A stretch of 36,178 nt of DNA from a virus (taxonomy: Duplodnaviria > Heunggongvirae > Uroviricota > Caudoviricetes): IMG/VR virus record IMGVR_UViG_2695420793_000017; one strand, 5' to 3'. A program made the position numbers and the translations under genes. A model generated the notes under the pieces. The model worked only from the letters and a program-made list of their open reading frames with translations. It was not told where the DNA came from and searched no databases. This document shows positions 10,003 to 36,178 of the stretch, piece by piece. The stretch's first letter is position 1. The number at the start of each line of letters is the position of its first letter.

Positions 10003-10078
10003 AGTGGCGAACCTCCTGATTGGATTAGGCTTCGCCCTATGTTGAAGTGATTGTGCCTGACAAACAGCTAAGCGCAGT

Positions 10079-10096
10079 TGTACCGTTATTCACACA
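10079..10096 (-). promoter_or_regulatory. putative Ogr-dependent late promoter element (TGT-N12-ACA dyad) upstream of FI
   Basis: TGTaccgttattcacACA, centred about 85 nt upstream of the FI ATG; P2 late promoters carry this dyad (recalled). Confidence 0.5.
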
Positions 10097-10136
10097 AAAT
10101 AACGGTATTTGTCCGCTTGCAGGAAAAATCTCTGCA

Positions 10137-10162
10137 TTTTTATAAACGTTGGTTTAGGAGAT
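10137..10162. promoter_or_regulatory. putative serine-invertase crossover site (gix/hix-like), left
   Basis: TTTTTATAAACG-TT-GGTTTAGGAGAT resembles the hix/gix 12-2-12 sites as recalled; its reverse complement shares a 10/12 half-site and the core with 11683-11708. Confidence 0.45.
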
Positions 10163-10515
10163 GCGGCAAAAAAAATGTTGGCACTGGTTCCGGACAGATT
10201 CCGGACATGTCTTCATTTGGTAATCAGCGAGCCGATTCGGGGTATCAATACCTGCCAGGCGGGTTAATTCTTCAATGGGCAATAGCCAAAACGAAAACAT
10301 CCCCAGAAACAGTATCATTCCCGATTGCGTTTCCAACCAGGGCGCTATGTGTTGTTGCAACAGACCAGAGTGTTGGGGGTACAGGTCAAGGTTTTGCGTT
10401 AACCGCCCAGAATTTTACGAGAACTAATTTCCAGCTACGCGCTTATCAGACAGGAACCAACGCTGAATCATCCATCGGCGCTGGCGGGTTTAACTATTTT
10501 GCTGTGGGGTATTAA
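10151..10515 (+). pseudogene. alternative tail-fibre C-terminal cassette, silent in this orientation and out of frame at an A8 tract
   Basis: the frame ending ...PGGLILQW...FPIAFP...FAVGY is homologous to the C-terminus of H; it has no in-frame 5' continuation unless a -1 shift occurs at A8 (10168-10175). Confidence 0.55.
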
Positions 10516-10518
10516 TAA

Positions 10519-10950
10519 ATGGCTTATTTTTATTCAGCATTAAATAACGCTTTCTACCCTGATGAGCTCAGAGATGTTTATGAAGCGAGTAGAAACTGGC
10601 CTGACGATCTCATAGCCGTCTCAGATGAGACATTCACTGAATATTCGGGGATGCCACCAGAGGGTAAAACTCGTGGAGCTACTGAGGATGGAATGCCGGC
10701 ATGGGTAGACATTCCACCTTTAAGCCATGAGGAGGAAATCGCAGCAGCTGAAGCTGAAAAACAGTATCGTATCGATCAGGCTAATGAGTATATAAACAGC
10801 AAGCAGTGGCCGGGTAAAGCTGCGCTGGGGCGACTTACAGACGACGAGAAGGCCCAGTATAACGAGTGGCTGGATTATCTCGATGCGCTGGAATCTGTGG
10901 ACATATCCAGCGCACCAGATATCAACTGGCCTGAGTCGCCGGAGGAGTAG
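10519..10950 (+). CDS. tail fibre assembly protein, alternative copy (tfa')
   Basis: 143-aa ORF homologous to the minus-strand tfa (shared ...AFY.DEL..., ...WPDD..., ...ALAEAEK... patterns); convergent with and overlapping it at 10922-10950. Confidence 0.7.
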
Positions 10951-11353
10951 GCCAGTCCGGGTCTGCTGTATCAACTCGCATCAGCAGCACCCGGTATTTT
11001 TTCCATTCGGCTAATGAAACAGTTTCTTCTTCCGTCGCGATCCCCGCATCAACGGCGTCCTGCCGCCATTCTATTTCAGAGTCAGCTGAAGCACGCAGTC
11101 GCGATTTTTCGGCTTCTGCCAACGCAATAATTTCCTCTTCAGTTGGTTCGGGAATATCTATCCATTCAGGTAAACCATCAGAATTAGGAGCGCGTAATTT
11201 TCCGTTAGGTGATTCTCCGGCAAACTCAACGAATACGGAATAGTCTACTTCAACGGCATCGTCAGGCCAGCTACCTGCATTTTCATAAATACTTTTTAGC
11301 TCATCAGCGTAGAACGCATTTTCTTTTGCAGAATAAAACATATTAATCACCAT
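10922..11353 (-). CDS. tail fibre assembly protein (gpG-like)
   Basis: 143-aa ORF immediately downstream of H; the P2 G position. Confidence 0.8.
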
Positions 11354-21186: not shown

Positions 21187-22953
21187 ATGAACACCACACT
21201 GACACCCGCAGATCTCGATCCCCGTCGGCAGGCCATGCTGCTGTACTTTCAGGGATACCGCGTAGCCCGCATTGCTGAAATGCTGGGCGAGAAAGTTGCA
21301 ACCGTTCACAGCTGGAAAAAACGCGACAAGTGGGGTGACTATGGGCCGCTGGATCAGATGCAGCTCACCACCGCCGCACGCTACTGCCAGCTCATCATGA
21401 AGGAGCACAAAGAAGGGAAAGATTTCAAAGAGATTGACCTGCTGGCGCGCCAGTCGGAGCGCCACGCGCGGATCGGCAAGTTTAACAATGGCGGCAACGA
21501 AGCCGACTTAAACCCTAACGTCGCCAACCGCAATAAAGGCCCACGCCGTCAGCCGGAAAAGAATGTTTTCACCGATGAGCAGATTGAGAAGCTGGAAGAA
21601 ATCTTCCATTCCTCCATGTTCAACTACCAGCGCCACTGGTGGGAAGCCGGAAAAACCAACCGCATCCGCAACCTGCTGAAGTCACGCCAGATCGGCGCGA
21701 CCTTTTACTTTGCCCGTGAAGCCCTGATTGACGCCCTGCTTACCGGACGTAACCAGATTTTCCTTTCCGCCAGCAAGGCACAGGCCCACGTCTTTAAGCA
21801 GTACATCATCGACTTCGCCAAAGAAGTGGGGGTGGAGTTGAAAGGCGATCCGATGGTGCTTCCTAACGGGGCCACGCTTTACTTCCTCGGCACCAATGCC
21901 CGCACGGCCCAGAGTTATCACGGCAACCTGTATCTGGATGAATATTTCTGGATACCGAAATTCCAGGAGCTGCGCAAAGTGGCTTCCGGTATGGCTATTC
22001 ACAAAAAATGGCGACAAACCTATTTTTCCACGCCATCCAGCCTGACACACAGTGCTTATCCGTTCTGGTCCGGTGCGCTGTTCAACCGTGGGCGCAACAA
22101 GGCCGACAAGGTGGACATCGACCTGTCCCACAGCAATCTGGCCCCCGGCCTGCTGTGCGCAGACGGGCAATACCGCCAGATAGTCACCGTGGAAGATGCG
22201 GTGCGCGGCGGCTGTAACCTGTTCGACCTTGACCAGTTGCGCATGGAGTACAGCCCGGACGAATACCAGAACCTGCTGATGTGCGAGTTTGTGGACGATC
22301 TCGCGTCCGTATTTCCGCTCAGCGAGCTGCAGGCGTGCATGGTGGACAGCTGGGAAGTCTGGACCGACTTTCATGCACTGGCTCTGCGCCCGTTTGGCTG
22401 GCGCGAAGTGTGGATCGGTTATGACCCGGCAAAAGGTACGCAAAACGGCGACAGCGCCGGATGCGTGGTGGTGGCACCGCCAGCCGTGCCTGGTGGTAAG
22501 TTCCGCATTCTTGAGCGTCACCAGTGGCGCGGGATGGACTTCCGCGCCCAGGCTGACGCCATCAAAAAACTGACCGAACAGTACAACGTGACCTATATCG
22601 GTATCGACTCAACCGGCGTTGGTCACGGGGTTTATGAGAACGTGAAAGCGTTCTTTCCTGCCGTCCGGGAGTTTGTCTACAACCCCAATGTTAAAAACGC
22701 CCTGGTACTCAAGGCCTACGACATTATCAGCCACCGCCGTCTGGAGTTTGACGCCGGGCACACCGACATTGCGCAGTCATTTATGGCAATCCGTCGCGCT
22801 ACCACTGCCAGTGGCAACCGCCCGACCTATGAAGCCAGCCGCAGCGAAGAAGCCAGCCATGCCGATCTGGCCTGGGCAACAATGCACGCACTGTTTAACG
22901 AACCGCTGCAGGGCGAGTCCGCCAATACCAGCAATATTGTGGAGATTTTTTGA
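21187..22953 (+). CDS. P: terminase large (ATPase) subunit P
   Basis: 588-aa ORF; gpP family; stop overlaps the Q start. Confidence 0.85.
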   Translation: MNTTLTPADLDPRRQAMLLYFQGYRVARIAEMLGEKVATVHSWKKRDKWGDYGPLDQMQLTTAARYCQLIMKEHKEGKDFKEIDLLARQSERHARIGKFNNGGNEADLNPNVANRNKGPRRQPEKNVFTDEQIEKLEEIFHSSMFNYQRHWWEAGKTNRIRNLLKSRQIGATFYFAREALIDALLTGRNQIFLSASKAQAHVFKQYIIDFAKEVGVELKGDPMVLPNGATLYFLGTNARTAQSYHGNLYLDEYFWIPKFQELRKVASGMAIHKKWRQTYFSTPSSLTHSAYPFWSGALFNRGRNKADKVDIDLSHSNLAPGLLCADGQYRQIVTVEDAVRGGCNLFDLDQLRMEYSPDEYQNLLMCEFVDDLASVFPLSELQACMVDSWEVWTDFHALALRPFGWREVWIGYDPAKGTQNGDSAGCVVVAPPAVPGGKFRILERHQWRGMDFRAQADAIKKLTEQYNVTYIGIDSTGVGHGVYENVKAFFPAVREFVYNPNVKNALVLKAYDIISHRRLEFDAGHTDIAQSFMAIRRATTASGNRPTYEASRSEEASHADLAWATMHALFNEPLQGESANTSNIVEIF

Positions 22954-23987
22954 TGGGAAAGAGTAAGAAGAACCGCGCTGCGTCGACGAAACAGATCCAG
23001 CATAAAAGCCAGACTTCAGCCGAAGCATTCAGCTTCGGTGATCCCGTTCCTGTTCTGGACCGCCGCGAACTGCTGGACTATGTGGAATGCGTACAGATGG
23101 AGCGTTGGTACGAGCCACCCGTAAGTTTTGACGGACTGGCGCGCACCTTCCGGGCTGCCGTGCATCACAGTTCCCCGATTGCAGTAAAGTGCAACATTCT
23201 GACCAGTACCTATATCCCTCATCCGCTGCTCAGCCAACAGGCTTTTTCGCGTTTTGTACAGGACTATCTGGTATTTGGTAACGCCTACCTGGAGAAACGC
23301 ACGAACCGATTCGGTGAAGTTATCGCCCTTGAGCCTGCGCTGGCAAAATACACCCGACGCGGGTTAGACCTGGATACCTACTGGTTTGTGCAATACGGTA
23401 TGACAACCCAGCCGTATCAGTTCACGAAAGGCAGCATTTTTCATCTGATGGAACCGGACATCAACCAGGAGATCTACGGCCTGCCCGGCTATCTTTCTGC
23501 CATCCCATCCGCTTTGCTCAACGAGTCCGCCACGCTGTTCCGCCGCAAGTATTACATTAACGGCAGTCATGCCGGCTTCATCATGTACATGACCGATGCC
23601 GCGCAGAACCAGGAGGATGTGAACAACCTCCGCAACGCAATGAAAAGCGCCAAAGGTCCGGGTAACTTCCGCAATCTGTTTATGTACTCGCCTAATGGTA
23701 AAAAAGACGGACTTCAGATTATCCCGTTGTCAGAAGTCGCAGCGAAGGATGAATTTCTGAATATCAAAAATGTTAGTCGCGATGACATGATGGCGGCACA
23801 CCGCGTGCCGCCACAGATGATGGGGATAATGCCAAATAATGTTGGGGGGTTTGGGGATGTGGAGAAGGCAAGTAATGTATTTGTACGCAATGAACTAATA
23901 CCATTGCAAAAAAGATTTGAAGAGTTAAATGTTTGGTTAAAAGAAAAAGTGATACAGTTCGAAGAATATAAACTTCATTCAAATTAG
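22950..23987 (+). CDS. Q: portal protein Q
   Basis: 345-aa ORF; gpQ family. Confidence 0.85.
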   Translation: MMGKSKKNRAASTKQIQHKSQTSAEAFSFGDPVPVLDRRELLDYVECVQMERWYEPPVSFDGLARTFRAAVHHSSPIAVKCNILTSTYIPHPLLSQQAFSRFVQDYLVFGNAYLEKRTNRFGEVIALEPALAKYTRRGLDLDTYWFVQYGMTTQPYQFTKGSIFHLMEPDINQEIYGLPGYLSAIPSALLNESATLFRRKYYINGSHAGFIMYMTDAAQNQEDVNNLRNAMKSAKGPGNFRNLFMYSPNGKKDGLQIIPLSEVAAKDEFLNIKNVSRDDMMAAHRVPPQMMGIMPNNVGGFGDVEKASNVFVRNELIPLQKRFEELNVWLKEKVIQFEEYKLHSN

Positions 23988-23993
23988 CTTTAA

Positions 23994-24012
23994 GGCTGCC
24001 AGTTTGGCAGCC
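23994..24012. terminator. possible bidirectional terminator hairpin between Q and the NTPase gene
   Basis: GGCTGCC-agttt-GGCAGCC hairpin; flanking T-runs are weak. Confidence 0.3.
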
Positions 24013-24019
24013 AGAACCT

Positions 24020-25270
24020 TTATCGCCATTTTAGATAAAAAGCAAAAAATGGATCAGTAATATGCAACTTTCGGTCCTCCTTATCCCAATCTATTACAGG
24101 AGTTGAAGCTTCTTCCGTAGCAGCTATTTTAGCCATTTTTTCTATAACACGAGTAACCTCATGAGCTTGTGGAGGAGCATCTTGCACCAGTTCGCGTATG
24201 GCTGATCTTAACTCCTCATACTGAATACTTTGCATTCCTGGTTTCATATGTGACAATGCATATAATACAACTTTATATATATCTACTTCCTCACCACTTT
24301 TCAGTTTTCTAGGAATTCTGTCAGTTCGCTGATTAGGGCCACTAGCTAACTTATCAAATACTATTTTCCCAGTGGATTCTGCAACCTTTCTAAAAATATC
24401 ATCATCTAAAGAATTAATAACTAACTTACTCGGCAAAGTTTCTTTAACATTATTTACTAAGCATATAGCCTTGCAAAACTCTTGCATTAAATGAGGGCTT
24501 CCCAATGATTCATTGGCAATTTTATCAATTACTGAATCACTAACTTCCATGTTTAACAGAGGAAATCCCACTTTTGCTATTTGTTTTAGTTCATCCATTT
24601 CCCACGAAGGCATGGAAATATTTTCTAGCCGTCCGGTAATTTCTTTTTCAACTTTTACAGCATCATATCTTCGATGTGGAATGGCTATCAGTACAACTGG
24701 TACTCCATCAAAAACTAATGGTTTTATCGCTCTAATAAAGTTACCTTGTAGGTCACGATCAAGGTAATGAAAGTCATCAATTATAAGACTAGACTTGGTT
24801 TGAGAGAGAACTTTTAGTGCAGAACTTTTTGCGGATATCGTTCGCGATTTTTTATTACCATTTGACTTTCCATCCGTCTGAACTAAACCAGCCTCACCTG
24901 TACCTTTAACAACGAATGCACTTGCGGTCCCCGATACCTTACCACTAACTGCAATAGCACTATTTTCTCCAGAATTAACTTCAATACTATGGTAGCCATT
25001 TAGTTTTTCTAATACCTGCTCCCAAATATCATCTTCAGTTGTAATACTCCCACCGTCAATCCATACAACATCATCGTCCATAACTGGGAATACCATTCTT
25101 GTAATTACAGTCTTACCAGACTTTGTTTGCCCAGTTAAAGTCACTAACTTACATAAATTATCTTTAGCACTCTCCAGTTTTCCATGAACCTCTCCTTCAG
25201 AGCGCTCAACATAAGTCAATTTCGGCATACCGCCAGGCACAAAAACTTGTGAAGCACGTTGTTTATCCAT
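24020..25270 (-). CDS. P-loop NTPase of unknown function (accessory gene, candidate anti-phage defence)
   Basis: 416-aa ORF; Walker A GQTKSGKT and Walker B-like LIIDDFHYLDRD; visibly AT-rich versus neighbours; lies between cos and Q. Confidence 0.8.
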   Translation of the reverse strand: MDKQRASQVFVPGGMPKLTYVERSEGEVHGKLESAKDNLCKLVTLTGQTKSGKTVITRMVFPVMDDDVVWIDGGSITTEDDIWEQVLEKLNGYHSIEVNSGENSAIAVSGKVSGTASAFVVKGTGEAGLVQTDGKSNGNKKSRTISAKSSALKVLSQTKSSLIIDDFHYLDRDLQGNFIRAIKPLVFDGVPVVLIAIPHRRYDAVKVEKEITGRLENISMPSWEMDELKQIAKVGFPLLNMEVSDSVIDKIANESLGSPHLMQEFCKAICLVNNVKETLPSKLVINSLDDDIFRKVAESTGKIVFDKLASGPNQRTDRIPRKLKSGEEVDIYKVVLYALSHMKPGMQSIQYEELRSAIRELVQDAPPQAHEVTRVIEKMAKIAATEEASTPVIDWDKEDRKLHITDPFFAFYLKWR

Positions 25271-25378
25271 GAATACTTCCCAATTAACACAGTTCTAGTG
25301 AACTACGATTCTAAAATAACATCTGAGCTTGGACAATTAACATTACATGATTTGAGTATTCAAAGCCACAAGCGCGCG

Positions 25379-25397
25379 CTCGTATCCCCGCCACGCC
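25379..25397 (-). other. putative cos cohesive-end sequence
   Basis: minus strand reads GGCGTGGCGGGGATACGAG, matching the start of the P2/186 cohesive ends as I recall them; exact 3' part differs. Confidence 0.5.
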
Positions 25398-25776
25398 TGC
25401 CCGCTTTATGCAGTGGTTTTCATGCACATGCATGACATGAGCAAAAGCCCGCCAGTTCTGGCGGATCTGAGCAAAGACGATCCTCAATCGATCATGCGAT
25501 TTCATGCAGCATAGTCATGCACTGTCAAGGAAGTGAAAATCCGTATCTGAATGGCCACTTGAAAAACGGATCATACGGGTTTACAAAGATGAATGTTCGC
25601 TGTGAACGGGAAGCGGAAGTTAGCTTTCAGATAACATAATCCATATGCACGAGAACCTCTAAAATAGAATGGGACACCTAAGCGGGGTACTTACAACGAT
25701 TCTTTCCATATTCACAGTTAACACTCTGTTTGGCGTATTTTTATTCAAATAGCAAACACCAATAAAAGGAGTTTCC

Positions 25777-26112
25777 ATGAACAATATTCCCCCTATACCA
25801 CAGTTAGGAATTTATGTCTCAAAAATCGATCCCACCCTACGTATCACTGTAACCGATGTTGATATTGTTGATGGTGAGGATGATTCTCCTGATGATGAAT
25901 TGTTTTATTTAGTCCACTGGATCGAGGGGGAAGATGAAAGTGATATGACAGCAATGGGATTTGAGCTAGACCCAGTAGAGTGGCAGGCTTTCGTTGAATC
26001 TGAGCAATTAGTGTTTGAGCGTGATCCGTACATGGATTCAATCCCCGAAAATTCAAACTTGGCAAAGATTCGGGATTTTCTCATGAAGACTAAACAGAAT
26101 GATCATTCGTAA
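25777..26112 (+). CDS. highly acidic hypothetical protein (possible DNA mimic)
   Basis: 111-aa ORF; AAAGGAG Shine-Dalgarno 7 nt upstream; about 26 Asp/Glu versus about 7 Lys/Arg by hand count. Confidence 0.65.
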   Translation: MNNIPPIPQLGIYVSKIDPTLRITVTDVDIVDGEDDSPDDELFYLVHWIEGEDESDMTAMGFELDPVEWQAFVESEQLVFERDPYMDSIPENSNLAKIRDFLMKTKQNDHS

Positions 26113-26304
26113 GTGTAAGCATCCATCAGGAAAATGGTTTTGTAAGTGAATCATCAACTTTTAGAGAGTCTCAGACACTCCCACTTCTGCTTCTGACACA
26201 AAGCGGACGATCACTTATCAAAATAACCGCCCACCTTACGCCTTATTTCACTCATTGCCCAAACTAGCCCCCATCAGAATGAATCCTCCTGGGGGCCACG
26301 TTTC

Positions 26305-26889: not shown

Positions 26890-29304
26890 TTAATACAGGT
26901 TCCGCCACTTATCATCTTCCTTCAGACGCTGGTTCCGATAGAAGATACGCAGGCCTGCTCCTGACGGAATACTGCCGCCGCGAAGGAGCAAATCGACTTC
27001 TTTCTCGCTGCCATCAAATCCCCTGGACTTCAGTTCATAGACGAGCTGCTGTCGCTGATGGTCTGTAATTCGCTGTTTGTAGTCTTTACGCCGTTTCGGT
27101 TTCACCTGGCGTAACCTTGCAGCCAGTTCCCGGCGCTCTTTTTTGCTCATACTGTGCAGGTAATCGTGCAACTCCTTGTCATTCATACGGGTAATATCCG
27201 TTCTGGAGTCCCCATCAGCTGATTTGTCTTTCCCTTGTTGGTTCAAATTTTCAGCAAGGGGACAGTTATTGCCACGAGTCCAAGGGGCGCAAGCGCCCTG
27301 GTCGGCTGCCGCCTCCTGAACATCAACGGCCTTACGAACCATTTTCCACTTCACGGCATGAGTGCAGATCTTGCCCTCTGCAATAGGTGACCAGATGCCA
27401 TAAATACGAATGCCGTGATCGCCATAGGCGGTCGGCTCTTCGTTGATTTCATAAGCGGTTCTGATGAGGTGATATTTGCGGGGAACCAGTACGCCGCCCT
27501 GCTTCATGATGTAGGTGGCAAAACAACCAGCATCAGCAGCAGCCAGGATGGCATCAAGGCGTGGGTTATCCAGTACCGGCGCACCTGCTTTTTTGTCCCC
27601 CTGTTGCCTTGCCGCCTGACCAGCCAGCAATCGCAGTTCACGGTAAGCCTGACGCCCCGGAATGCCAAAGAAGCGGAATTGCTGAACACGATGCAGAGAC
27701 GCCCAGGCATTCACGTATTCAGCGTTATCACGCAGAGATTTACCCGTTTCCTTACTGATCTCGCCAGCCAGACCACGCCCGTCAATGTTCTTGCTGATAT
27801 ATTTCGCGATGTAGCTTGTCGGCGTTCCTTTGCGCGGGTTAATCAACTCAGACTTAAAGCGCGGCCCCGTGTTATTGCCCAGCTCCTCGCGGTCTTCACG
27901 AATGGCAAACTTACGCAACAAAGCAGTAATGGCGCGGCGATCTTTTTTGCGCATAAAACACAACAGGTGCCAGTGAACTGTACCGTCATGATGCGGCTCC
28001 GCCACCCGCACGCCATACCAGCGCAATCCGGATTTGTGCATAGCCTTACGAAATGCAGCAAACATGCCGACCAGATAATCGCTGCTTTGTCTTACTGTCG
28101 CGTTGGTCCAGGTCGGGTTTGGCCTGCCGTTATTTAGCGTGGAATGGAAACGTGACGGACAGGTGATGGTGTAGAAAACGGCGCAGTCACCACGCATTTC
28201 CGCGATAAGCTCCAGACCTTTAACGCAGGCCATCATCTCATTGCGGCGATGCGCCGGGTTGCTGCTGCTGGCGTTTACCACATCCTCCATGTCCAGCGTG
28301 TCGCCGTCTTCGTTCACCAGTTCATGAGAGCGGAAAAACTCCAGCGACTTACGGCGCTGCTCACGTTTATGCATCACGGCTTCATAGCTAACATAGGGAG
28401 ATGCTTTTTTGCTGACCAGACAAACAGCACGCAACTGCTCTTCCCGCCATTCGCAACGCATCTTCCATAATTTCCGATACCACCAGTCGGCGCACAGCAT
28501 ACGCGCCAGCGAACCCGGAATGAGTTCATAGGGCACAGGTTTGCGGCGGTTTCTTTTCCGGCGGAGTTGCTCAAACGCAGGCGGTATGACATCCAGTCGC
28601 AGGGTTTCTGCTGCCACCTTTTCCCATGTCTTGCGGATTTCTTCCGGCTTAACATCATCGGAGGCATACAAATCGCCACAAGCTGCATCAAGGCACATGC
28701 TCATATGCGCAGCAACAAGGGTGGACAGGCGTTTCACCTGATCCTGACTCATTTCAGGCAGAATCAGCAGGCCGTCCAGCCCTTCATGGCTTGCCATAAA
28801 GCGAAAAGAAGTGGATAGCTGACTGTCGCGTACATGCTCCAGCCGTTCCAGACATGGCTTAATCGTCTCACGCAAATAGCGGGAATAAGCCTTTGGCCTG
28901 CCCAGGCTGCTGAAGTATTCAATACGTTGCATCAGCGGCTTGCTGATATGGGAAGGCTGGGCGCTGACATCTGCCAGAATGACCATGTCCGGGTTAAAAC
29001 GCTGCTGTTCATGCGCCAGCTTTGCCCGGCTAATGAGCTTATCCTGCTCCATTTCGCGCTGGACAGGATCACGGGATTCATTAAAGAAATAACGTTCCCA
29101 GACCTGATCACTCAGTGCCTCGCGGCGGCGCTGTTCCTGCTCGTTATCAGCAGCGTACAGAGTGATCATGTTTGAAAGTGCAGACTCCGGCGCAACTTCC
29201 GCCGGTTCCAGATAAGGGTTAATGGCCTTTTTCGGGCCGTTCCATGAAAATGCTGCGGCAGCCTCGTTAAAGCCGCTAGAGTTGCTCATATCGTCATGAC
29301 TCAT
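26890..29304 (-). CDS. A: replication initiation protein A (rolling-circle nickase family)
   Basis: 804-aa ORF at the gpA position in the early operon. Confidence 0.8.
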
Positions 29305-33100: not shown

Positions 33101-34039
33101 ATGTCAACTCAAAAAAACACATTTCGCCATATTAGCGAGAGTCTAAAAACTTCAATAATGCAAAACCGTGGGGGACAGAAAGTAATTGAGCGTATACTTG
33201 CTGCGTATGGTTTTACTTCGCGGCAAGCATTTTGCAATCATCTGGGTATCTCACAAAGCACGATGGCTAACAGGTATGCTCGTGACACATTTCCTGCTGA
33301 CTGGGTGATAATTTGCAGTATAGAGACCGGCGCATCTATCGACTGGTTGGCATCGGGAATCAGCTGTGAATCATCCTCAGTTTTATTAAATGATGAACGT
33401 TTAGCCCATACCAAATCTGATGACCTGGATAGAACTAACTCAATAGCCCAAAAGTTCCCAATCGAGACCAGCATAAATCCTAATAAAGGAGGGAAGGCGG
33501 CAATTGATCGCTTAGTCGCAGCCTACGGCTTTAGCACCCGACAAGCCCTAGCAAACCATTTGCAGGTTTCAAAAAGCACTGTAGCAAACAGGTACTTACG
33601 AGACACGTTTCCTAGCGATTGGATCATTCAATGCGCTCTTGAAACAGGAACTTCATTACTCTGGCTCACAAACGGCAATGGCCCCAAATTTATCGATAAT
33701 TCCAGCTCTGTAGCCCAACTTAAACACCAAACAATCATTGACGGTAAATTACATGATGAAGGCTACTTAGCATTTGACAAGACGCTTATACCTTCCGGAT
33801 TGAAAAAACCTATTGGAGTTACCGCAGAAGGAAAAACCTTTATTGCAGATACAGAATATGATGATGTTTCAGATGGTAGTTGGTTGATTGAGATTGAAGG
33901 TAAAGTAAGTTTAAGAAAATTAACAAGAATTCCAGTTGGAAAAGTAAAAATCACATCAGATACAACTGATTTTGTTTGTAAGCTTGAAGACATTACAACC
34001 ATCGCAAAATGTTGTTGCGTTTTTTCAAAGGAAATTTAA
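33101..34039 (+). CDS. cI: CI-like immunity repressor with a tandemly duplicated N-terminal DNA-binding domain
   Basis: 312-aa ORF; two homologous modules (...ERILAAYGF.SRQAFCNHLGISQSTMANRYARDTFPADW... and ...DRLVAAYGFSTRQALANHLQVSKSTVANRYLRDTFPSDW...) followed by a C-terminal domain. Confidence 0.75.
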   Translation: MSTQKNTFRHISESLKTSIMQNRGGQKVIERILAAYGFTSRQAFCNHLGISQSTMANRYARDTFPADWVIICSIETGASIDWLASGISCESSSVLLNDERLAHTKSDDLDRTNSIAQKFPIETSINPNKGGKAAIDRLVAAYGFSTRQALANHLQVSKSTVANRYLRDTFPSDWIIQCALETGTSLLWLTNGNGPKFIDNSSSVAQLKHQTIIDGKLHDEGYLAFDKTLIPSGLKKPIGVTAEGKTFIADTEYDDVSDGSWLIEIEGKVSLRKLTRIPVGKVKITSDTTDFVCKLEDITTIAKCCCVFSKEI

Positions 34040-34049
34040 AGGAACATAC

Positions 34050-35039
34050 ATGAATTCTGAAAATAAAAAAAATGAAAACAACGATTATGTTGAAAAAGTT
34101 AATTGCGAATGGAAAGATCTTTATAATATTTTAAATGAAAATCTGCATAAATTTAATGAAAATGAACGCGCCTACTTAGTCGACTTATTAAAAAAAGGTG
34201 AACTTGATAAATTCAGAGAATACTACTGGAAATTAGCCCAGCAAGAAAAAATGAACTACAGCGATAAAGCTGGAGATATTTTTATTAATGAAAACAATAA
34301 GATAGATGAATTAATAAAAGAACAAAAACATCTTCGAGAGATAATGCGATCATATACCAAACGTTTATTGGAGGCTGAAGAGTCCAAAGCTACGTTACAT
34401 CTTCGGAATGAGAATTTAGAAAAACTAAATTCTGAAAAAGAAGCAATTATTGAGCAAGCCGTATCTAGAATAAAGCAACTTGAAGCATCTAACAGCGAAT
34501 TACAAAGCCGAGTACAACAAGAAAGGATTGATGAGAAAATACCAGGATATGTCGATAGCGTTAAAAGTGAACTAAGTTCAGATGACTTATATTTCATTAA
34601 AATGTCGCAAGTATGGGCTTTTACTGGCTGCATTTTTGGGCTACTTGCTGTATGTGCATCATTTTATACACTCTACGCCACAATTGACTTCAACAATGTT
34701 AAAGGCTTTGAGCTATTTTATTTTTTCACACGTGGTTTAATTGGTATTTCCATTCTTTCTTGGCTAGCATATATTTGCCTTGGCAACTCTAAAAAATATA
34801 CCCATGAATCAATTTTGAGAAAAGATAGAAGACATGCACTAATGTTTGGGCAAGTATTCCTGCAAATTTATGGTTCCACGTCAACAAAAGAAGATGCTGT
34901 GTTAGTCTTTAAAGACTGGAATATGTCTGGTAACTCTGCATTTTCTGACAAAACAGAACTCCCTCCGGGAATCCAATCTTTATGGGATTCAACCAAAGAA
35001 AAACTAAAGCCAAGTACCGCTGAAAAAGCACAGGAGTGA
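34050..35039 (+). CDS. hypothetical coiled-coil/two-TM protein (AT-rich moron between cI and int)
   Basis: start set at MNSENKK (AGGAA Shine-Dalgarno); Lys/Glu/Asn-rich coiled-coil N-half, two hydrophobic helices; strongly AT-rich by eye. Confidence 0.7.
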   Translation: MNSENKKNENNDYVEKVNCEWKDLYNILNENLHKFNENERAYLVDLLKKGELDKFREYYWKLAQQEKMNYSDKAGDIFINENNKIDELIKEQKHLREIMRSYTKRLLEAEESKATLHLRNENLEKLNSEKEAIIEQAVSRIKQLEASNSELQSRVQQERIDEKIPGYVDSVKSELSSDDLYFIKMSQVWAFTGCIFGLLAVCASFYTLYATIDFNNVKGFELFYFFTRGLIGISILSWLAYICLGNSKKYTHESILRKDRRHALMFGQVFLQIYGSTSTKEDAVLVFKDWNMSGNSAFSDKTELPPGIQSLWDSTKEKLKPSTAEKAQE

Positions 35040-35125: not shown

Positions 35126-36178
35126 ATGGCAGTACGAAAACTCACCACAGGAAAATGGCTTTGCGAATGTTACCCTGCCGGACGTAGTGGACGTCGTGTG
35201 CGTAAACAATTCGCCACCAAAGGCGAAGCTCTGGCTTTTGAGCGTCACACGATGGAAGAAACCGAAGCAAAACCCTGGCTGGGTGAATCAGTGGATCGTC
35301 GAACACTGAAAGACGTGGTTGAACTATGGTTCAAACTACATGGTAAATCTCTGACAGCTGGGCAGCATGTCTATGACAAATTGCTGTTGATGGTTGACGC
35401 TCTGGGAAATCCCATTGCAACCGATCTCACCTCTAAAATGTTTGCCCACTATCGAGATAAACGCCTGACAGGAGAGATCTACTTCAGCGAAAAATGGAAG
35501 AAAGGAGCAAGCCCGGTCACCATTAACCTGGAGCAAAGCTATCTTAGTAGTGTTTTTAGCGAACTATCCCGCCTGGGCGAATGGTCGTATCCGAACCCAC
35601 TGGAGAACATGCGAAAATTCACCATCGCAGAAAAAGAGATGGCATGGCTTACCCATGAGCAGATTGTTGAATTACTGGCTGATTGCAAACGTCAGGACCC
35701 AATTCTGGCACTGGTAGTTAAGATATGCTTAAGCACAGGCGCACGCTGGCGTGAAGCTGTAAATCTTACCCGCTCACAGGTGACCAAATACCGAATTACC
35801 TTTGTAAGAACGAAGGGGAAGAAAAACAGAAGCATCCCTATCAGTAAAGAACTTTACGAAGAGATCATGGCGCTTGATGGGTTCAATTTCTTCACAGACT
35901 GCTATTTTCAATTTTTATCTGTGATGGGAAAAACGTCTATCGTGCTCCCTCGCGGTCAACTGACACACGTTCTGCGCCATACGTTTGCGGCGCATTTCAT
36001 GATGTCGGGTGGAAATATCCTTGCTTTGCAAAAAATCCTCGGACATCACGACATAAAAATGACTATGCGTTACGCACATCTGGCACCGGATCATCTGGAA
36101 ACGGCGCTCCGTTTCAATCCTCTGGCAACGCTGCCAAGTGGCGACAAAGTGGCGGCAGCGGTTGGCATTACCCCGTAA
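35126..36178 (+). CDS. int: tyrosine integrase (P2/186 type)
   Basis: 350-aa ORF; C-terminal ...HVLRHTFA...GHHDIKMTMRYAHL fits the tyrosine recombinase catalytic region; stop is the last codon of the window. Confidence 0.85.
   Translation: MAVRKLTTGKWLCECYPAGRSGRRVRKQFATKGEALAFERHTMEETEAKPWLGESVDRRTLKDVVELWFKLHGKSLTAGQHVYDKLLLMVDALGNPIATDLTSKMFAHYRDKRLTGEIYFSEKWKKGASPVTINLEQSYLSSVFSELSRLGEWSYPNPLENMRKFTIAEKEMAWLTHEQIVELLADCKRQDPILALVVKICLSTGARWREAVNLTRSQVTKYRITFVRTKGKKNRSIPISKELYEEIMALDGFNFFTDCYFQFLSVMGKTSIVLPRGQLTHVLRHTFAAHFMMSGGNILALQKILGHHDIKMTMRYAHLAPDHLETALRFNPLATLPSGDKVAAAVGITP
36140..36160. repeat. putative attL core (GGCGACAAAGTGGCGGCAGCG) inside the int 3' end
   Basis: 20/21 identical to 2835-2855. 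Confidence 0.5.

Follow-up and report, generated by a model that had tools for sequence, protein, structure and literature searches.

A PDC-S59-like AAA+ ATPase next to the cos site of a P2-like prophage as a candidate exclusion factor

What does a lone, AT-rich ATPase gene do between the portal gene and the cos site of a P2-like prophage? The question is raised by an open reading frame (ORF) of 416 amino acids (aa) in IMG/VR virus record IMGVR_UViG_2695420793_000017, a stretch of 36,178 nucleotides (nt) that was analysed at its full length and is called the window below. The window comprises a complete Fels-2/P2-like prophage that runs in reverse and adjoins the host gene ybjM; its gene order is D, tail, L, M, N, O, P, Q, cos, DinI, A, Dam, CII-like, CI, Int. 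We find that the ATPase gene is a moron acquired by horizontal transfer and probably transcribed on its own, located in the gpA-gpQ hotspot, that its product matches the PDC-S59 family of computationally proposed defence proteins over its full length, and that the protein is predicted to be a Cdc6/Orc1-like AAA+ ATPase armed with a long beta-hairpin. We give roughly even odds (a probability of about 0.5) to the explanation that, as a whole, best accounts for these results, namely a PDC-S59-family exclusion factor in the hotspot that would act by ATP-dependent assembly.

Exchangeable cargo between portal gene and cos site

The ORF lies between A and Q, adjacent to cos, in a P2-like prophage, the position by which Rousset et al. 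2022 (PMC9122126) defined the cos-proximal gpA-gpQ hotspot of P2; a 2026 preprint confirmed gpA-gpQ as the main P2 hotspot. The locus is thus one of the variable-cargo hotspots that a preliminary description of the window had attributed to P2-like prophages, and one that has already been described. BLASTN comparison with sibling phages divides it into Q, a variable slot L, a conserved cos core, a variable slot R and the region from DinI onward (Table 1). The reverse complement of the 19-nt cohesive end proposed in the same description, GGCGTGGCGGGGATACGAG, agrees at 14 of 19 positions with the annotated P2 cosL, GGCGAGGCGGGGAAAGCAC, and lies inside the core, which is 87-91% identical among siblings with different cargo. 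In P2 itself, cosL occupies positions 1-19, the terminator tQ 160-181 and Q 187-1221, leaving no room for a gene, so the statement of the preliminary description that the P2 cos-Q junction is gene-free agrees with the annotated map.

Comparison of this junction across relatives revealed variable content. In Fels-2 and RE2010, slot L holds AbiU (E 2.7e-112 and E 7.8e-68, respectively), in vB_EcoM-813R9 a Hypoth_Ymh protein with a HEPN/PD-Lambda-3_B-like domain, and in Klebsiella phage KP12 a three-gene cassette of no recognised function, all of them convergent with Q; sibling flanks around the slot are 87-97% identical, and at least five content types were counted in otherwise similar phages. 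A 69%-identical homolog of the ATPase occupies the same Q-cos slot in Salmonella Fels-2-like prophages, where it is indexed in 2787 collection blocks. The clearest case of exchange comes from an E. coli prophage (locus L077), whose flanks are 96-100% identical to the window while identity across 23751-25500 is only 59-74%, and which encodes a 71%-identical ATPase allele within the divergent stretch. Since the divergence is limited to this interval, the cargo is exchanged as one unit with cos and the 3' end of Q. DNA identical to the window was found in 7 of 5426 complete E. coli genomes and an allele of about 70% identity in three more, making 10 of 5426 in total; a tblastn search of 50,697 deposited phage records returned no homolog of at least 60% identity and one distant match (27%).

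The composition of the gene is equally distinct. Its GC content is 0.372 overall and 0.242 at third codon positions (GC3), compared with 0.492 (GC3 0.575) for Q, 0.566 for P and 0.532 for A; the flanking genes fall between 49 and 57%, and the whole prophage is at 0.513. The gene has its own promoter-like site inside the variable cassette and runs convergently with Q, the two stop codons being separated by 32 nt. A GC-rich hairpin in this gap, GGCTGCCAGTTTGGCAGCC, with a folding energy of -15.3 kcal/mol (z -3.4), may act as a terminator in both directions. With 1674 homologs at E<=1e-3 in the homology search, and 1694 in the representative library (415 of them at E<=1e-30), the ORF is not a chance reading frame; its protein is identical to RefSeq WP_060615098.1, which is labelled 'hypothetical protein', as it is in all sources. 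The features read by eye in the preliminary description, namely an AT-rich 416-aa ORF convergent with Q and bearing a Walker A motif and an hhhhDD-type Walker B motif, were all recovered, both motifs by back-translation, and its proposal of horizontally acquired cargo is upheld by the foreign composition, the promoter-like site, the variation of the slot and the cassette swap in the E. coli prophage.

Two further observations concern this junction. A 64-aa hypothetical protein, WP_072199413.1, is annotated (RefSeq/PGAP) at 25311-25505 on the minus strand, spanning the cos site and the ATPase promoter, and is probably a spurious call within the conserved cos core. In E. coli IAI39 (locus L081, 4501-4545), a 45-nt remnant of the 3' end of the ATPase gene, 100% identical, stands beside the portal gene in a decaying prophage from which an IS3 insertion has removed the rest; the same remnant occurs in four other E. 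coli genomes and in two viral loci (L031 and L032).

Family membership and predicted structure

The preliminary description could not assign the protein to a named family. Profile hidden Markov model searches against Pfam and PADLOC, which it had proposed, now do so: the protein matches PADLOC PDC-S59 (model PDLC05049) with E 2.4e-31 and 107.2 bits, aa 7-415 aligning with positions 6-402 of the 428 in the profile. The PDCs are 145 single-gene 'guilt-by-embedding' candidates, whose homologs are embedded in bacteriophage exclusion (BREX), defence island system associated with restriction-modification (DISARM) or type I restriction-modification (RM) systems (Payne et al. 2024 preprint, 10.1101/2024.01.29.577857). 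In Pfam, AAA_22 (PF13401) is borderline, at 26.2 bits (E 1.1e-5) against a gathering threshold of 27 bits, and many homologs carry a precomputed PF13401 match; matches to TniB (E 1.8e-3), AAA_16 and NB-ARC are weak. The sole PHROGs match is phrog_6841, a family with no assigned function, and in a PDB sequence search with the family profile the matches, zeta toxin and the lid of RuvB, were marginal. In the supplementary tables of Rousset et al. (PMC9122126; one such entry is in Table S5A), 'AAA_22' genes appear on their own in hotspots of both P2 and P4; a link between their accessions WP_032286573 and WP_000160301 and the ATPase family could not be established.

Homologs are nearly all about 420 aa long and are found in bacteria, archaea, prophages and plasmids. 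Their conservation is unusually high: the Salmonella and Serratia proteins are 69-70% identical to the window ATPase, and those of Vibrio, Pseudomonas, Nostoc, Bacteroidota and Planctomycetota about 50-55%. In rare fusions, P0124 (902 aa) and P0125 (917 aa), the whole PDC-S59-like module is combined with another P-loop NTPase that gives weak ATPase_2, nSTAND3 and ORC-CDC6-like matches; such relatives of about 900 aa also match the PDC-S59 model, and Pfam ATPase_2 weakly matches P0124 and P0139. The fusions hint that a PDC-S59-like module can work in tandem with a partner resembling signal transduction ATPases with numerous domains (STAND). Separately, contigs assigned by binning to Aenigmatarchaeota (DPANN) and Kaiserbacteria (candidate phyla radiation, CPR) (L053 and L063) encode homologs of about 50% identity, the binning being taken as given; if it is right, this identity implies very recent inter-domain transfer.

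Conservation was scored on 116 homologs reaching down to 28% identity. G47, G52, K53, R214, W223 and P259 are invariant, and D165, D166, F167, H168, P198 and H199 are at least 90% conserved, a pattern that, on the sequences at hand, looks like that of an active NTPase under purifying selection. A PD-(D/E)xK-like reading of the segment YDAVKVExE was considered and rejected, as its residues are not conserved in the wider family.

The structure prediction and fold search that the preliminary description had suggested point to a Cdc6/Orc1-like AAA+ protein with a winged helix and a hairpin. The AlphaFold2 model built from the 116 diverse homologs (predicted local distance difference test score, pLDDT, 92; predicted template-modelling score, pTM, 0.86) supersedes an earlier one from 43 close homologs, which was poor at the P-loop (pLDDT 73) and had given separate winged-helix matches, to histone H5, ESCRT-II and Fur. 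In the newer model, an N-terminal strand and helix precede an AAA+ alpha/beta core (about aa 36-220), the lid, a helical linker that holds a conserved basic GPxQRxDRxxR segment, a canonical winged helix of predicted topology alpha1-beta1-alpha2-alpha3-beta2-beta3 (aa 331-404) and a terminal helix of aromatic character, DPFFAFYLKW (aa 406-415), one of the best-conserved segments of the protein. Pfam and PADLOC scans together with the model showed no other domain, the core, hairpin, lid and winged helix covering all 416 aa. The ATPase is therefore modelled as a stand-alone Cdc6/Orc1-like AAA+ switch composed of core, lid and winged helix.

The most unusual predicted element is the hairpin, made of two 18-residue strands (E95-112 and E127-144). 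It is Ser/Gly-rich and the most variable segment of the ATPase in sequence, with a constant length; its distal part (aa 108-131), where Gly, Ser and Thr abound, alternates hydrophobic or small with polar residues and ends in a conserved tip, A-(L/F)-(V/I)-A-K-G-x-G. Around R214, the segment ITGRLENISMPSW resembles the box VII or arginine-finger motif of Cdc6/Orc1 and TniB. The putative sensor-2 position is occupied by His260 rather than Arg; RuvB has Arg at the aligned position, as does Cdc6. The GSPHL motif around it resembles the sensor-2 motif of Cdc6, His260 standing in place of Arg, as well as the GxP motif of STAND proteins.

Table 1. Positions in the window of the hotspot segments, of the ATPase gene with its signals and predicted protein features, and of the tail-fibre region.
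Feature	Position	Strand	Remarks
Portal gene Q	22950..23987	plus	Left hotspot boundary; final ~240 nt diverge along with the cassette
Variable slot L (Q to cos), cargo cassette	23970..25370		Sibling homology ends at ~23915-23969 and returns at 25371
Conserved cos core	25371..25523		~150 bp; putative 19-nt cohesive end 25379-25397
Variable slot R (cos to DinI)	25524..26294		Second half of the gpA-gpQ hotspot; contains a 111-aa ORF
Replication gene A	26890-29304		Right of the hotspot
Candidate ATPase coding sequence	24020..25270	minus	416 aa, ATG start; stand-alone AAA+, PDC-S59-like
Sigma-70-like promoter TTGTCC-17-TAGAAT	25308..25336	minus	38 nt 5' of the ATPase ATG, within the variable cassette; consensus match only
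Shine-Dalgarno-like GGGAAG	7 nt before the ATPase ATG	minus	Consensus match only
GC-rich 8-bp hairpin	23994..24012		Inside the 32-nt gap between the Q and ATPase stop codons; without a clear U-tract
Walker A, GQTKSGKT	25109..25132	minus	aa 47-54; G47, G52 and K53 invariant
Walker B, LIIDDFHY, hhhhDD type	24764..24787	minus	aa 162-169; D165/D166/F167/H168 >=90% conserved
Long beta-hairpin arm	24839..24988	minus	aa 95-144; predicted insertion within helix alpha2 of the AAA+ core; family-specific
R214	24629..24631	minus	Invariant; within ITGRLENISMPSW
AAA+ helical lid	24446..24607	minus	aa 222-275 (predicted); G257-S-P259-H260 motif, P259 invariant
C-terminal winged-helix domain and terminal helix	24023..24289	minus	aa 328-405 (predicted) and DPFFAFYLKW, aa 406-415
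Tail-fibre region	10078-10950, with 10922-11353	plus; minus	

Genomic contexts and candidate function

To look for a conserved neighbour, ORFs were called in 46 loci from a wide range of phyla and compared all against all by BLASTP; none recurs, the exception being the P2 portal and terminase genes beside homologs in P2-like loci; the ATPase thus works as a stand-alone gene. Its settings are diverse. The 70%-identical Serratia homolog is an opposite-strand moron of lambdoid prophages, located between the replication genes and the Q-antiterminator region, and the Vibrio, Pseudomonas, Sideroxyarcus and Pseudoduganella homologs are solitary insertions. The Vibrio cholerae homolog has a Tn5-type transposase about 750 bp downstream, an association that is not conserved elsewhere; the Pseudomonas copy lies by a Bro-N gene, the Sideroxyarcus copy among housekeeping genes, and the Pseudoduganella copy adjoins a pair made up of an nSTAND1 gene and an AbiC/AbiP-like gene. 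On plasmids, distant homologs (about 27%) have as neighbours a type I RM system, MqsA and Fic in Selenomonas, and a methylase/helicase (type III-like) RM system and Fic in Glutamicibacter.

Some of these neighbourhoods hold observations of their own. In the Pseudoduganella locus (L012, 8976-10975), a 392-aa ATPase lies 1.7 kb 3' of the homolog and is followed by an AbiP/AbiC-like gene; it shares just its N-terminal ~70 residues with the PDC-S59 profile (E 2.7e-11), and the two genes may form a related two-gene system. In Clostridium estertheticum plasmids, a gene for a 272-aa hypothetical protein begins 3 bp 3' of the 27% homolog on the same strand (L079, 8170-8988), so the Gram-positive branch may be a two-gene operon. 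Homologs of Pseudomonas oryziphila, Stutzerimonas stutzeri and Luteimonas deserti (L011, L037 and L070) apparently share one insertion site: the P. oryziphila homolog is just downstream of called nrdA/nrdB genes, and the same large upstream ORF family recurs in all three, antisense to nrdA in P. oryziphila.

The suggestion of the preliminary description, a hedged one, that the ORF is a candidate single-gene NTPase defence factor gains support from the PDC-S59 match, the absence of a recurrent neighbour, AbiU in the corresponding slot and the RM neighbours on plasmids. A role in defence or exclusion, whatever the mechanism, seems to us somewhat more probable than not. Beyond that role, we infer oligomerisation, the nature of the target and the step that is blocked. 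In the explanation that we prefer, the ATP-bound protein would recognise a phage-specific nucleic-acid or nucleoprotein structure through its winged helix and hairpin arm; it would then oligomerise, with the invariant R214 as a trans arginine finger, and the assembly itself would block phage DNA replication or packaging, or arrest the cell. Such a mechanism agrees with the nearest folds of characterised function, which without exception assemble on DNA, and with the spread of the family, since very different hosts require a host-independent action. A bolder version, that PDC-S59-type proteins form a new class of self-contained immune ATPase whose own assembly is the weapon, the hairpin arms clamping phage DNA or replication intermediates in an 'anti-origin' complex or forming a membrane beta-barrel, is speculative and strikes us as unlikely; a self-assembly mechanism that works unchanged from E. 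coli to cyanobacteria, and possibly in CPR bacteria and archaea (binning as given), would explain the identity of about 50% across phyla.

Several points weigh against a defensive role acting by assembly. The authors of the PDC list explicitly present its members as computational predictions without experiment (10.1101/2024.01.29.577857), our literature search found no experimental characterisation of PDC-S59 or WP_060615098, and no NCBIfam model, anti-phage models included, matches the protein. The gpA-gpQ hotspot also carries partition systems and toxins (PMC9122126). Within the protein there is no recognisable effector domain, its net charge of about -3 and a weakly basic hairpin disfavour simple coating of DNA, and the arginine-finger and sensor assignments are putative ones, drawn from motif resemblance. 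Outside phages and plasmids, finally, the neighbours are mostly housekeeping genes: among 149 neighbour proteins scanned against PADLOC and Pfam, with no background control, most belonged to housekeeping families, with scattered single defence matches (mad3/6/8, PDC-S01, BstA, DrmC and a kinase), so guilt-by-association outside mobile elements is weak.

One alternative is cargo of a non-defensive kind, a Cdc6/Orc1-like DNA-binding ATPase serving element maintenance, partition, regulation of host or phage replication or transcription, or some other lysogenic conversion. The closest folds do belong to replication initiators and DNA-target selectors, defence genes are absent from the surroundings of many chromosomal homologs, and partition systems and toxins occupy the same hotspot of other P2-like phages (PMC9122126). 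We nevertheless hold this to be unlikely. The gene is optional, given its rarity among the E. coli genomes and its absence from P2; the records of Fels-2, RE2010, vB_EcoM-813R9 and KP12 carry other genes in the slot, the 50,697 deposited phage records hold no homolog of at least 60% identity, and the gene is interchangeable with Abi genes; it occurs by itself in chromosomes that are unrelated, in lambdoid phages and on plasmids, accompanied by neither a cognate DNA site nor a partner; and the PDC-S59 model cluster contains at least one protein embedded in BREX, DISARM or type I RM (10.1101/2024.01.29.577857). The direct adjacency to cos, Q and P, and the joint swapping of the cassette with cos and the 3' end of Q, raise the further thought of a weapon between mobile elements: it might counter defence systems, or interfere as an anti-satellite or anti-helper factor with cos-dependent packaging, for example that of P4-like satellites or rival P2-like phages; systems of the P2 hotspot can target P2 relatives (PMC9122126). 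Adjacency to cos is, however, a property of the hotspot and not specific to the ATPase gene, and homologs reside in replicons unrelated to P2, P4 or cos, including those of cyanobacteria and Bacteroidota and Gram-positive plasmids beside RM systems, so a P2/P4-specific target cannot explain the family and we judge this distinctly unlikely.

Two narrower explanations start from parts of the protein. The absence of any other candidate effector in the ATPase draws attention to the hairpin: ATP-dependent rings might unite hairpins into a membrane-permeabilising beta-barrel, causing abortive infection, or pore loops might remodel a phage protein. The predicted 18+18-residue hairpin, the amphipathic-type alternation at aa 108-131 and the conserved tip would suit such an effector; its proximal half, however, is polar, hypervariable and not amphipathic, its tip is hydrophobic where that of beta-pore-forming toxin hairpins is, we assume, polar, fold searches returned no membrane-related match, and we know of no AAA+ insertion that forms a pore. 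A hairpin effector is accordingly improbable in our view. Still less probable is an ATPase of transposition type or of a selfish element, whether a TniB/TnsC/MuB-like target selector or a mobile-element remnant. It would account for the weak Pfam TniB match, for a GRL...P.W segment resembling what we take to be a TniB motif, for TnsC and MuB among the structural neighbours, for the transposase near the Vibrio cholerae homolog and for the solitary, patchy and highly mobile distribution of the family, yet no transposase recurs among the neighbours in the 46 loci. The preferred explanation thus remains an exclusion factor that would act through its own ATP-dependent assembly.

Other variable regions of the window were noted alongside the ATPase locus. 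Slot R, across cos, contains a very acidic 111-aa ORF (25777-26112, plus strand; phrog_17127) without a PADLOC match, whose 99%-identical twin in the E. coli prophage with the divergent allele carries a precomputed Pfam DUF8087 match. It was considered as a partner of the ATPase and rejected, as it lies across cos on the opposite strand and is absent from the Salmonella loci; it is conserved at 99% beside a 71%-identical ATPase, that is, beside two different alleles, and a role as a DNA mimic or as a small protein of anti-defence type is speculation. GC content falls to its lowest value in the window (0.30-0.36) at 33972-35039, where the plus strand encodes a 355-aa protein (phrog_2628) with a weak coiled-coil match, located between the CI repressor gene (33101-34039) and the integrase gene (35126-36178). 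Here the prophage may have a second place for cargo; a 2026 preprint describes minor defence hotspots of P2 near the integrase. In the tail-fibre region, a plus-strand C-terminal fragment of a tail fibre (Gp53-like_C) and a tail-fibre assembly gene (Caudo_TAP) face the minus-strand tail genes at a local dip in GC; the region looks like an alternative fibre cassette or the remnant of an invertible segment.

Comparison with known systems

Both the gpA-gpQ hotspot and the family, as a computational candidate, are already known, so a candidate defence gene at this place will not surprise a specialist. New are the assignment of the window branch to PDC-S59, the recognition of the ATPase as recurrent, allele-swapping cargo of the Q-cos slot that also occurs as a lambdoid moron, and a confident predicted model of an effector-less Cdc6/Orc1-like protein with a unique hairpin arm. 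In most of the current defence repertoire, NTPases act through nucleases, TIR/SIR2 domains or membrane effectors to which they are fused or coupled. Should the ATPase prove protective, one of the 145 PADLOC candidates would become a validated system, and an effector-less, Cdc6/Orc1-like single protein would join this repertoire, in the form of a compact family (1.25 kb) with about 50% identity across many bacterial phyla; its commonness in Salmonella Fels-2-like prophages could then influence the host range of phage therapy in Enterobacteriaceae. Should it not be defensive, it would counsel caution about guilt-by-position in prophage hotspots. In either case, the locus is a clean natural example of cassette exchange around cos, in which the cargo seems to travel together with cos and the 3' end of Q.

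The window protein resembles the PDC-S59 model in being encoded by one gene, in its length of about 420 aa and in its near full-length profile match; at 107 bits it represents a diverged branch of the model's seed cluster, and it stands in a prophage hotspot rather than embedded in BREX, DISARM or RM. Described cargo of the gpA-gpQ hotspot includes old, tin, retrons, DUF4238, DprA-PRTase, TIR+TM and others (PMC9122126). The window gene is like this cargo in position, foreign composition and cassette-like replacement, but its product is not among the systems cloned or validated there (PMC9122126). Its place is between cos and Q, where P2 has no gene; for old and tin, the location given is the gpA-gpQ locus overall.

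Among folds, the archaeal Walker-type ATPase PABY2304 (PDB 2qen) aligns with the model over 295 of 350 residues. Together with SSO1545 (PDB 2fna), it shares 12-15% identity with the window ATPase, and both appear to lack the 50-residue hairpin, about 120 residues of the window protein being unaligned; we take both to be members of Pfam ATPase_2. No function is transferred from them, and literature searches on PABY2304, and on Cdc6 combined with anti-phage, returned no characterisation. Compared with TniB, TnsC and MuB, and with BrxC of BREX, the window ATPase lacks a transposase or BREX partner in the 46 loci and has an additional winged helix and hairpin. We know of no characterised defence system with a Cdc6/Orc1-like, effector-less, hairpin-armed architecture.

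The most instructive comparisons are those with STAND NTPases and with Cdc6/Orc1. With the former, the window ATPase shares the module of nucleotide-binding, helical and winged-helix domains, the hhhhDD Walker B and the GxP motif, but it has neither the N-terminal effector nor the C-terminal repeat sensor of STAND proteins that resemble nucleotide-binding leucine-rich-repeat (NLR) receptors (Avs, bNACHT, TIR-NLR); its structural scores are lower than those to Cdc6/Orc1, and its Pfam NB-ARC, NACHT and nSTAND matches are insignificant. An arginine finger is typical of AAA+ rather than STAND proteins, and R214 is arginine-finger-like. From Cdc6/Orc1, the window ATPase differs in that a predicted beta-hairpin replaces the helical initiator-specific motif (alpha2), in a Walker B with DD rather than DE and in the replacement of the sensor-2 Arg by His260; it is also solitary, sporadic and mobile, stands in no origin context and is not a core replication gene. 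What the two have in common, in the predicted model, is an AAA+ core with Walker A and B motifs, a helical lid and a C-terminal winged helix.

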